Shown piece after piece: positions 8,714 through 12,190 of a stretch of DNA of 28,249 nt (positions are counted from its first letter, which is position 1; the number at the start of each line of letters is the position of its first letter). Location: contig CAZTHU010000001.1 in the NCBI GenBank assembly GCA_964613575.1, positions 1 through 28,249 of the forward strand, in the 5' to 3' direction. This DNA comes from an uncultured Eubacteriales bacterium. Its GTDB lineage: Bacteria > Bacillota > Clostridia > CAZTHU01. The notes below the pieces were generated by a model. That model saw nothing but the letters and a program-made list of their open reading frames with translations, did no database searches and was not told the DNA's origin. The translations under genes were made by a program, and so were the position numbers.

Positions 8714-10492
8714 TTAGCTTGCCTTACCATTAATGTCTTTAGATGCTTTAGAATTATTCCACATTTTCACAAGCTCTTCCTCGGTTAGTGTTTCTTTTTC
8801 TATAAGAGCTTTTGATATTTTTTCAAGCGCGTTTTTATTTTTTTCTAAATATTCTAAAGTCTCTTTGTATAATGTTTGCGACATCACCTTTATTTCCTCT
8901 AGTACTTTTTCACTTTTTATATCTATAACATCAAGATTTATCATACCAAAATTACTCATGCCAAATACTTTTACCATCGTGTGTAATTTTTGTGTAGCCA
9001 TTCCAATATCAGAGCTTGCACCTGTAGTAATTTTATTTTCATCGTTAAATAATATAAATTCAGCTGCTCTACCACCATAAGCAATCATTATATCATTTTT
9101 AATATCCTCTTTTGAAAGAAGATGTTCTTTTTCATTATTTATAAATGTCACTCCACCTGCACCACTTGTAGAGGCAATGATAGATACTTTAGGTACATTT
9201 TTATTTGCTAAAAATTTTGCAATAATAGCATGCCCTGCTTCATGATAGCCAACCGTTTTTACCTCTATAGGATCTCTATCTAAGTTCTTTCGTTGATATC
9301 CCTTCATGACTGCTTTATAAAAAGCCTCATCTAAATCTTCATTGTCTATAGCTTTTTTTCTTTTTACAGAGGCACTAATTGCAGCTTCATTTATTATCTT
9401 TGCAATATCGGCACCTGAACATGTTGAGGTGTATTTTGCAAGGCTTTCAAAATCGATTTCCTTGGCCAATTTTTTATTTTTCGAATAATATTCAATTATT
9501 TTTTTTCTATCATTTATATCAGGAAGTCCAATTGTTATATGTCGATCAAAACGACCTGAACGGGTAAAGGTTTCGTCTAATGCATTTAAATTATTCGTTG
9601 CGCCAATTACTAATATTCCGCTTGATTCATTAAACCCGTCCAATTCAACAAGAAATTGTTTTAATGTTTGTTCTTTTTCAGAGTTATTATCAATACCAGC
9701 CTTTTTAGCTAGTGCTTCCAATTCATCTACAAATATAACACAAGGTGCTTTTTGACGGGCATCTTTAAATAACTGTCTAACCCTAGAAGCACCAACACCT
9801 ACATACATTTCTACAAATTCTGATGCATTTACATTAAAAAATGGTACATCTGCCTCGCCAGCTATTGCTTTTGCAAATAATGTTTTTCCAGTTCCAGGTG
9901 GTCCATGAAGTATAACTCCTTTAGGAAGTTTTGCTCCAAGTTGTTGATATTTTTTAGGATTTTTCAAAAAATCGACTAAAAGAACAAGATCTGTTTTGGT
10001 TTCTTCGTGACCAGCTACGTCAGAAAATTTTACATTTGATGTTATGACTATATTTTCTTTAGTGTTTTTGTTTTTGGGCATATATCCCCTCAAAAAGAGT
10101 AATAGAATACCAATAGGTATGATTACAAATAGGATCTCAAGTAAAAACCTAATAGCATTCATGTGAAATGGTGTTGGCAATTCGGAAACCTCGACACCAT
10201 TTTCTAGCAAGAATTTTCTAAACTCTGGAAAATCTGGATCGGATACAAAGAAAACTTCTTCACTTTGCGTAGTAACTTTGAGTTTAGATTTATTCGATTT
10301 AAACTCAACCGTATCTATTTCACTATCTTTAACCTTTTCTCTAAATAAATTATATTTTAGGCTATCATCGGAAGATTCTTTTTCCATTTCATTATTACCC
10401 AAAATTCCGAAGCTATAGCTAACAAATAGAATACCGCCAACAATAGCTAAAATAAACAAAATTTGTTTTAAGATACTTTTATTTTTTTTCAT
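8714..10492 (-). CDS. ftsH: ATP-dependent zinc metalloprotease, FtsH family, divergent paralog
   Basis: Two N-terminal TMs, Walker A GPPGTGKT, Walker B VIFVDE, SRH TNN..RSGRFDR, zinc motif HEAGH; SD AGAGGAG. Confidence 0.9.
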
Positions 10493-10544
10493 AACATAAA
10501 ATCTCCTCTAAATAACTTTTCTGAGTTTCTGTTTAAAAATCTAC

Positions 10545-10853
10545 GCAATAATTCTCGTGACTATAGTAGTGAGATGAATTGCGCCACTTAATATATATGC
10601 TAGTTTTTATAACAACTAATATATAGTTGTTATGGAACTAGCAAAACCAGTAGTTTCCCTTAGCCAATGTTGGAAAAGCTTCGCAATGTGGTTGACCTTT
10701 CCTTTCCTTCAGAACTTTTACAGAGCCACGATAGTGCCAAGAACTATGGAATCATTCTTGGGTATCTACTTCTAATCCAAAGTAGTCAGTTAAGACTTAG
10801 GCTAGTCAATAAGAGCTTTTACAAGCCCGTCACTTTAGTGATGGATTATTGAC
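10545..10853. mobile_element. Non-autonomous IS200/IS605-family (IscB-type) MITE with no nuclease or transposase gene
   Basis: Two related subterminal hairpins, CTCGTGAC-TATA-GTAGTGAG (10554-10573) and CCCGTCAC-TTTA-GTGATGGA (10826-10845); + strand ends in TTGAC (10849-10853); omegaRNA-like interior. Confidence 0.8.
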
Positions 10854-10873
10854 AGAGTGTTCTAGTTTTGTTA
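10645..10873 (-). ncRNA. HEARO / IscB omegaRNA scaffold (10853 to about 10645) with a putative 5' guide from the flank (about 10873-10854)
   Basis: Minus strand reads GTCAATAA..TTATTGAC-TAGCCTAAG..ACTACTTTGGA..GATACCCAAGAATG..AGTTCTTGGCACTATC..AAGC..TCCAACATTGGCTAAGGGAA, the motif order of HEARO/omegaRNAs as I recall it; the helices are directly visible; ends approximate. Confidence 0.8.
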
Positions 10874-10930
10874 CAACGTAGTAATTTTAAAGTAGGAAAA
10901 ATTAGAGTTTGAAATTTCAATATTAAGATT

Positions 10931-10959
10931 ATTATAACATATCAATAAGAAAAAGTCAG
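10931..10959 (-). promoter_or_regulatory. Sigma-A promoter upstream of the omegaRNA and ftsH paralog
   Basis: Minus strand CTGACT, 17 nt, TATAAT with extended -10 TG. Confidence 0.55.
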
Positions 10960-10964
10960 TATTC

Positions 10965-11022
10965 AAACAATATCAATACAATTATTTTGTATTTAATGCA
11001 GAATAATTGTATTGTATTGTTT
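10965..11022. terminator. Long AT-rich inverted repeat just downstream of the ankyrin gene; likely terminator
   Basis: AAACAATA(T)CAATACAATTATT pairs with AATAATTGTATTGTATTGTTT (21 bp, one bulge). Confidence 0.5.
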
Positions 11023-11032
11023 GTTAGCTATA

Positions 11033-12190
11033 TTAAACAGTTAAAGATAATGATTTTTGTTTAGTTTCTTGCTGTAGGTTTAAGCTTAGCTCTTTTTTAG
11101 GTAGCTTTCTTTCTTTAGTGTTAGGAGTATATTTTGCATATATGCTATTAGAGTCTACGACTTTCTCAGCCTCTTTTTCTTCTACCCTAGGTTGTACTTG
11201 ATGTTTGTTTATATAGTTTGCTAAATCTAGGTTATCTTTTAAAACAGCCAAATCGGAAGGCTTTCTTTTCCATTTGTCTAGCAGTTTTGGATTTGCTCCA
11301 TTATCTAACAAGGTATCTACAGTATCTTTATTGCATTTGTAAGCAGCTATATGAAGAGGTGTAAGGTTTTTCTTAGACTTAGCATTAACATCTGCACCAC
11401 TATTTACAAAAAGTTTTACAAGCTCAGAATCTTGCTTTAATACTGCTAGATGAAGTGGACTATATCCATTTTTTTCTTTAGTATTAAGCTTTATTTCATT
11501 TTCAACAAGCTTTTGAATTATTCTTTTCTTTTCATCTTGGTCAGGTAATAAGGTTTCCTTTTTATCAAAAACGCTAAGTGGATATTCAACCATGTCTGGA
11601 TTAGGAATAAGTTCTTTTTTATTGTCATCAACTCTTTTAATATCGGATATGTAAGCGTTTTTTACTATAACTCCCTTTACATCACCTATAAAAAGGTTTT
11701 GTATAGGTGTTTCTTTACTTCTGTTAAAAATTTTAGTTTTTGCACCTGCATTAAGAAGAGCTTGAACTGTTTCTTCTCTTTTAAATAGATTTTTTTTAGC
11801 ACTGTCTAAAAGATAACCACCAAACTCAGGATTAACATGGTCGTTAGTAGAAAAGTTAACAGTATTAGAAGATAAACTTAGACCTAAGCAAGATCTTCCT
11901 TTGTGGTCACGTGTATTTGGGTTAGCACCGTATTCCAATAAAAGACTTGTAAGTCTTGGGTTTGACGTTTTAGACGCAAAAGATATTAAAGGTACTTTAT
12001 TACCTTTTTCATCTTTTAAAGTAGCGTTTGGATTGGCATTTAGATCTAATAGCTTTTCTACATCATCTAATGTAGCGTTTGTAGCAGCAAGGTGATCTTT
12101 GTTTTGCCCGTCAGTTTTTTTGAATAATTCGACTAATTTGTTTGTTGCTGTTTTACTGTAGCTGTCTGTACATGAAAATAATTTGTACAT
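11033..12190 (-). CDS. Ankyrin-repeat protein, 385 aa
   Basis: GYSPLHLAV..GADVNAK, NLTPLHIAA..GANPK, LLLEYGANPNTRD repeats; SD GGGGG; no signal peptide. Confidence 0.9.
   Translation of the reverse strand: MYKLFSCTDSYSKTATNKLVELFKKTDGQNKDHLAATNATLDDVEKLLDLNANPNATLKDEKGNKVPLISFASKTSNPRLTSLLLEYGANPNTRDHKGRSCLGLSLSSNTVNFSTNDHVNPEFGGYLLDSAKKNLFKREETVQALLNAGAKTKIFNRSKETPIQNLFIGDVKGVIVKNAYISDIKRVDDNKKELIPNPDMVEYPLSVFDKKETLLPDQDEKKRIIQKLVENEIKLNTKEKNGYSPLHLAVLKQDSELVKLFVNSGADVNAKSKKNLTPLHIAAYKCNKDTVDTLLDNGANPKLLDKWKRKPSDLAVLKDNLDLANYINKHQVQPRVEEKEAEKVVDSNSIYAKYTPNTKERKLPKKELSLNLQQETKQKSLSLTV

Follow-up and report, generated by a model that had tools for sequence, protein, structure and literature searches.

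Junctions of many copies and one empty allele delimit an omegaRNA-bearing IS200/IS605-type mini-element in an uncultured Clostridia bacterium

The HEARO family of Rfam has been described with many copies that lack an open reading frame, and IscB elements of the IS200/IS605 family reportedly encode an omegaRNA. The target sites of two Helicobacter pylori members of this transposon family are short, TTTAA for IS605 and TTAC for IS608, and in IS200/IS605 elements a short 'DNA guide' segment separates the cleavage site from the foot of the hairpin.

In IscB elements HEARO is bounded by RE, the donor joint consists of the TAM and the RE flank, and the elements are preferentially oriented like the upstream gene; PATEs that carry omegaRNAs depend on a nuclease supplied in trans (Meers et al. 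2023). In this established framework the guide comes from the DNA flanking the 5' end of the omegaRNA, the TAM lies at the other end, and the excised allele is the target; a sequence-only reading of the DNA analysed here had adopted the same framework.

The DNA is a 28,249-nt stretch (the window) belonging to a MAG of 1.8 Mb in 224 contigs (84% complete, 33% GC). The mini-element in it is real and of an ordinary, already described kind: it agrees with what has been published on transposon-encoded guide RNAs and PATEs, and no new principle is involved. We consider it likely that window positions 10536-10853 are a non-autonomous, protein-less (PATE/MITE-like) derivative of an IS200/IS605-family IscB element, with the guide that had been proposed and to which the homing model would apply. 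The value of the analysis is chiefly corrective, in that IS200/IS605 ends defined by eye tend to stop at the foot of the hairpin and so misplace the TAM, whereas the junctions of many copies together with one empty allele fix a TAM of this type to the base. The features of the locus are these:

10536-10853, minus strand: the whole ORF-less IS200/IS605-type mini-element (PATE), 318 nt, delimited by the empty-allele joint from 10535 to 10854, the copy on contig C4 and the junction alignments.
10650-10853, minus strand: omegaRNA scaffold, a full-length match to Rfam HEARO (RF02033) at 109.4 bits against a gathering score of 83, covering model positions 1-211.
10854-10873, minus strand: predicted guide-encoding flank directly 5' of the omegaRNA scaffold, outside the element, with a 16-nt core at 10854-10869; similarity among five copies stops here.
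10827-10844, plus strand: subterminal hairpin of RE, separated from the cleavage site by 9 nt, with a DNA fold of -5.5 kcal/mol (z -3.0), conserved in all copies.
10598-10643, unstranded: long hairpin of 46 nt (8 + 10 bp) where full-length relatives have iscB, DNA fold -14.1 kcal/mol (z -7.8).
10544-10583, plus strand: LE subterminal imperfect hairpin, DNA fold -7.2 kcal/mol (z -2.2), conserved in 11 copies.
10536-10544, plus strand: LE terminal 9 nt, internal to the element, in which GTAG and the final T are constant and the 4 nt between them differ among subfamilies; missing from the empty allele.
10532-10535, minus strand: transposon-adjacent motif TAAA (TTTA on the plus strand), kept in the empty allele on the flank side of the joint and found in 10 of 11 copies.
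10931-10959, minus strand: promoter-like site upstream of the guide, with 10/12 matches and a TG before the -10 hexamer; a lead only.

HEARO is the sole Rfam match in the window, and with a score above the gathering threshold over the full model the mini-element belongs to RF02033. On the transposase top strand, which is the plus strand of the window, RE lies at 10853 and LE at 10536. Both ends carry subterminal hairpins 8-9 nt from the cut sites, terminal inverted repeats are absent, and the bases of the RE hairpin make up, on the opposite strand, the first stem-loop of the omegaRNA. The imperfect subterminal hairpins, the precise excision without duplication and the conserved short motif abutting LE are those of the IS200/IS605 family, while the small size (318 nt), the lack of coding capacity, the multiple copies and the ends held in common with a coding parent element are PATE/MITE-like. 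An IscB ORF directly downstream of the omegaRNA, as in a complete IscB-omegaRNA system, is absent from the window, whose ORF list contains nothing between 10650 and LE.

The closest described systems are IS200/IS605-family IscB elements such as the ISGst IscB element (Meers et al. 2023), with which the window element shares an omegaRNA starting at RE, a flank-derived guide, an AT-rich adjacent motif at the other end, subterminal hairpins at both ends, the lack of a target duplication, a donor joint composed of guide match and TAM, and co-orientation with the upstream gene. It differs from them in that they carry iscB, whereas here there is no iscB ORF and a 46-nt hairpin stands in its place, and in its motif, which is TAAA in omegaRNA orientation as against TTCAT on the transposase strand for GstIscB. 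From PATEs and stand-alone HEARO copies it differs in nothing essential: it is likewise short, protein-less and multi-copy, has both IS ends and an omegaRNA, and would need a transposase and a nuclease in trans, the family having its own end sequences and residing in a soda-lake Bacillota-like MAG. As in IS605 and IS608 of H. pylori, insertion takes place on the 3' side of a short T-rich tetra- or pentanucleotide at LE, a short segment lies between cleavage site and hairpin, and excision is precise; unlike them, the window element has neither tnpA nor tnpB, and its end sequences are unrelated to theirs. Pairing of TAM/TEM with the LE and RE 'DNA guide' segments, tried by hand after the IS608 rule, gave no convincing result.

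Six HEARO matches were found in the MAG, and BLAST with the element added further end fragments. We were thus able to align the 5' junction in five copies (C1, C4, C17, C45 and C3) and the 3' junction in 11. A full-length sibling copy at C4:18190-18507 is 94% identical over its whole length; the copies on C45 and C3 start within the omegaRNA, at contig ends, and the far-end hairpin occurs on C12, C173, C31, C167, C199, C117, C77 and C147, the majority also at contig ends. The same ends are common to the mini-element, to the iscB-bearing contig ends C117, C167, C45 and C3, and to a deletion derivative on C17, while C12 and C173 carry truncated LE-only remnants, the one on C173 decayed.

The 5' junction is sharp at 10853|10854: all five copies begin with GTCAAY, with unrelated sequence right upstream, and position 1 of the HEARO model coincides with 10853. 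In further copies from metagenomes (Logan contigs) similarity likewise ends at 10853, and at the other side at 10532. The guide that the sequence-only reading had drawn from the RE flank (10854-10873) is borne out by this five-copy junction and by the empty allele described below.

The other end had been placed at 10544|10545, with GTAGA (10540-10544; TCTAC on the plus strand) as the TAM and guide|GTAGATTTTTAAAC as the expected empty site. The arithmetic behind this was right, as removing 10545-10853 does yield the minus-strand string that had been quoted; the foot of the LE hairpin starts at about 10544-10545 and looks like an end by eye, and 5 of 11 copies have GTAGA next to the hairpin. The alignments, however, put the end farther out. 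All 11 copies remain homologous for 13 nt past this boundary, through 10532, and then diverge; in omegaRNA orientation the LE hairpin is followed by GTAG, four variable nucleotides and TTAAA, after which the sequences are unrelated. The four variable nucleotides read ATTT, GCTC, GTTC or GCGC depending on the subfamily, and because flanking DNA would not give subfamily variants framed by constant bases, the GTAG-NNNN segment must lie inside the element. A boundary at 10545 would also leave no room for a 'DNA guide' segment between the cleavage site and the hairpin foot, and the observed empty allele lacks 10536-10544. An element of 10545-10853 with a GTAGA TAM is therefore scarcely credible: the proposed boundary is 9 nt short, and GTAGA is internal.

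The motif that the copies have in common on the flank side is TAAA, which is missing only from the decayed copy on C173, against a background of 0.0136 per position in the genome (P ~2e-18). A fifth position, 10531, shows a weak bias to A (7 of 10 copies). The expectation that copies would share a flanking motif thus holds, with TAAA in the place of the proposed GTAGA. Judged from these aligned junctions, the transposon-adjacent motif is TAAA(N), that is, (N)TTTA on the transposase strand.

An empty allele came from Logan contigs of four soda- and salt-lake metagenome runs, placed on window positions 9900-11500 at 85% likeness. One contig each in runs X1 and X3 joins 10535 straight to 10854, skipping 318 nt (10536-10853), with no letters between the two sides (depth 2.6 and a shorter side of 53 nt in X1; depth 2.3 and 47 nt in X3). 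Because these contigs join 10535 to 10854, the element is 10536-10853. The empty site reads ...ACACTCT|TAAACAG in omegaRNA orientation, or ...CTGTTTA|AGAGTG... on the plus strand (10535|10854), and so departs from the string that had been predicted; in the occupied window the 3' end of the element is ...GCGTAGATTTT, and the flank then opens with TAAACAG. The right breakpoint agrees with the one expected from the sequence-only reading and the left one does not. There is no target-site duplication, as that reading required: the empty allele joins without extra letters, and no direct repeat is common to the flanks.

Contigs of such low depth (2.3-2.6), placed by alignment at 85% likeness and recorded with 'between: not known', could in principle represent an assembly chimera, as joints of this kind can arise from repeats, or an unrelated organism, in which case the left boundary might fall anywhere in 10532-10545. 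We regard this as very improbable, since the identical joint is found in two separately recorded runs (a study is named for only one of them, X3 being without a study name), one of its sides coincides exactly with the 5' junction, which had been derived independently, the other lies exactly between the variable subfamily segment and the invariant TAAA, and both lie in unique flanking DNA outside the repeat.

The joint leaves an ambiguity of 1 nt, as there is an A at both 10536 and 10854. An element shifted by one base, 10537-10854, would have the motif TTAAA (TTTAA on the transposase strand, as for H. pylori IS605), and a T does precede TAAA invariably in the 10 intact copies as well as in three distant relatives. 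The first base of such an element would, however, vary among the five copies, in which the base adjoining GTCAAY upstream is T, T, C, A and A, though the copies are otherwise 86-96% identical. Because this base varies, the ambiguity is settled for 10536-10853, and we consider the shifted element improbable.

The element at 10536-10853 was also sought as an empty site in the 40 nearest GTDB species genomes (none closer than the same class), where none was found, the matches being confined to the ftsH coding part or to HEARO copies; a search for the orthologous locus with the ankyrin protein against JGI metagenome contigs found none, the sole match having 29% identity. Metagenome depth within the element is far above that of the flanks; it sums contigs of all organisms and thus gives no copy number. 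In X1, X2 and X3, contigs at depth 4-20 connect 10682 with 10815 and leave out 132 nt, so the community includes related omegaRNA copies that have lost an internal part of the scaffold. In run X4 (a lake-water metagenome, 2025), contigs with about 90% likeness to the flanks stop matching exactly at 10535 and at 10856, where other letters follow; these contigs, too short to interpret, may belong to a relative with different content at the same site.

The spacer that hosts the mini-element is 540 nt long and separates an ankyrin-repeat gene (11033-12190, minus strand) from an FtsH-type protease gene (8714-10492, minus strand), and the mini-element has the same orientation as the upstream ankyrin gene. 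We propose that a mini-element that kept RE, the complete HEARO scaffold, a hairpin replacing iscB, and the LE hairpin with its 9-nt terminal segment would have inserted into this spacer immediately 3' of TTTA on the plus strand, without a target duplication. A transcript entering from the flank would then carry about 16-20 nt of it (10854-10873) as a guide fused to the scaffold. IscB acting in trans, directed by this guide and presumably reading TAAA as its TAM, would cleave the empty allele, and this break would cause the element to be copied back from a sister chromosome. Such a function in trans is plausible. The use of the guide by IscB likely spans about 16 nt (here 10854-10869).

The promoter-like site at 10931-10959 is a possible source of the guide-bearing transcript, the alternative being read-through from the co-oriented ankyrin gene; the promoter scan returned 3 such sites in all as against 3.4 expected from shuffled sequence, an absence of excess that gives no support for a dedicated promoter. 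The mini-element occupies the leader and promoter of the ftsH paralogue (window 10493-10959), which is encoded on the same strand, and may change the expression of ftsH; the ankyrin and ftsH genes of the empty allele are only about 222 nt apart. A 19-bp AT-rich inverted repeat, described as terminator-like, lies shortly after the ankyrin stop codon (10974-11014), and BLAST shows a partial reverse copy (10964-11023).

Other targets of the predicted guide were not found in the MAG (allowing as many as 4 mismatches over 20 nt, or 2 over 16 nt, with TAAA following), nor did IMG/VR contain an exact match of the 16-nt core plus TAAA. The remark that no second target could be seen in the window therefore stands, and extends to the whole MAG (up to 2 mismatches in the 16-mer plus TAAA). 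This lack of other targets is more in keeping with a homing guide than with a defence spacer.

A cognate IscB had been assumed; the window contains none, and the assembly holds only fragments of it. The RRXRR search of the MAG yielded only a 25-aa remnant on C17, and tblastn with P0003, a 423-aa RRXRR+HNH protein from an ENA metagenome whose N-terminus is near-identical to this remnant, found fragments and no intact iscB in the 84%-complete MAG. The contig ends of C117 and C167 encode the last 52 aa of IscB (156 nt of the iscB 3' end, ...HNNNWQYILE*), which in a protein search are 98% and 94% identical, respectively, to P0003. At the position of the long hairpin (10598-10643), C17 has instead an RBS and the start of iscB, and contigs of X1 and X3 run from HEARO into an RBS and ATG like those of C17 (loose end at 10598). 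The guide match plus TAAA target and the near-cognate P0003 make up a concrete candidate IscB/omegaRNA/TAM triple from an alkaline-lake Bacillota-like organism.

The C17 locus (1314-1865) is an internally deleted iscB element comprising HEARO, an RBS, IscB aa 1-25 (MKVFVLNKNNKPLMPC...), pieces corresponding to aa 136-175 and 388-423, and the LE hairpin; it ends in the 13 nt GTTGGCTCTTAAA. Another deletion derivative, at C199:1-161, joins an IscB HNH-motif remnant (...NLITVCPDCH...) straight to the LE hairpin.

Eight MAG contigs break off within the element family (C45:1-89, C3:1-69, C31:11798-11850, C77:8152-8204, C117:6434-6646, C167:4831-5052, C147:1-83 and C199:1-161). The element-family repeat is a main cause of assembly breaks in this MAG, and full-length iscB copies are absent from the bin probably because of such breaks; the simplest reading is that full-length iscB elements are present in the organism or community but broke the assembly. 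Our reading presumes an intact IscB and a TnpA in the cell. A short canonical tnpA was not found in the 84%-complete MAG, in which the only candidate transposases are two Y1_Tnp-domain ORFs, of 253 aa on C113 and 325 aa on C82, both longer than canonical TnpA and neither located in the element.

More distant IscB relatives, with 61-65% aa identity, come from Bacillus methanolicus PB1 and rumen Clostridia MAGs. Downstream of the stop codon, three of these have the same type of hairpin, then about 10 nt and TTAAA, beyond which two sister loci diverge. The end architecture, and probably the motif, are therefore features of the clade.

The HEARO scaffold of the window scores 22 bits lower than that of the C4 copy (109.4 as against 131.3 bits). 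Two private substitutions fall on conserved HEARO positions (ACGUU to ACUUU at 10781, GGCGA to GGCUA at 10662), and there is an extra broken pair; at these two and six further positions nearly all related metagenome contigs carry the consensus letter. These substitutions suggest that the window copy may be drifting. The same anatomy could accordingly be that of an inert fossil, in which the omegaRNA is no longer made or loaded into IscB and the guide is nothing but the chance flank of a dead mini-element; consistent with this, there is no iscB in cis and no intact iscB in the MAG, and decay is common in the family, as C12 and C173 are truncated and C173 is decayed. The HEARO score is, however, well above the Rfam cut-off across the full model, the ends and hairpins are intact, full-length iscB elements are apparently present both in this genome, where contigs end in them, and in the community, and the orientation agrees with that of the upstream gene, as in active IscB elements. 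An inert copy is a serious possibility, to which we give somewhat less than an even chance.

The reading that we prefer, a protein-less derivative of an IscB element, can be extended to the subfamily with a hairpin in the place of iscB (C1, C4 and the related end fragments C12, C31 and C173). Carrying nothing but guides, this subfamily might be spreading actively as a parasite of the iscB-bearing elements of its genome, borrowing TnpA and IscB in trans and homing to its own empty sites via private flank-derived guides. Its central hairpin might then have been selected to stabilise the 3' end of the omegaRNA or to terminate it, and would not be a deletion scar. We offer this extension as speculation and think it rather unlikely.

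The MAG also contains a second IS200/IS605-like end family, consisting of a hairpin CCAC..CTAAAGG..GTGG followed by TTTCGGTTAAGTT.TTATAAA. Its eight copies, which diverge right after TTATAAA, are at C41:4515-4580, C17:4411-4489, C173:4742-4803, C132:3-55, C23:8025-8087, C111:1649-1698, C53:6069-6107 and C66:8850-8900. These are probably the left ends of a second HEARO subfamily, again with a TAAA-like adjacent motif, whose scaffolds lie at C66:5857-6084 (123 bits), C41:4197-4424 (112 bits) and C113:6247-6467 (68 bits), none with iscB after it. The HEARO copy on C113 is upstream of a 779-aa ankyrin-repeat ORF, about 2.6 kb from the 253-aa Y1_Tnp-domain ORF.
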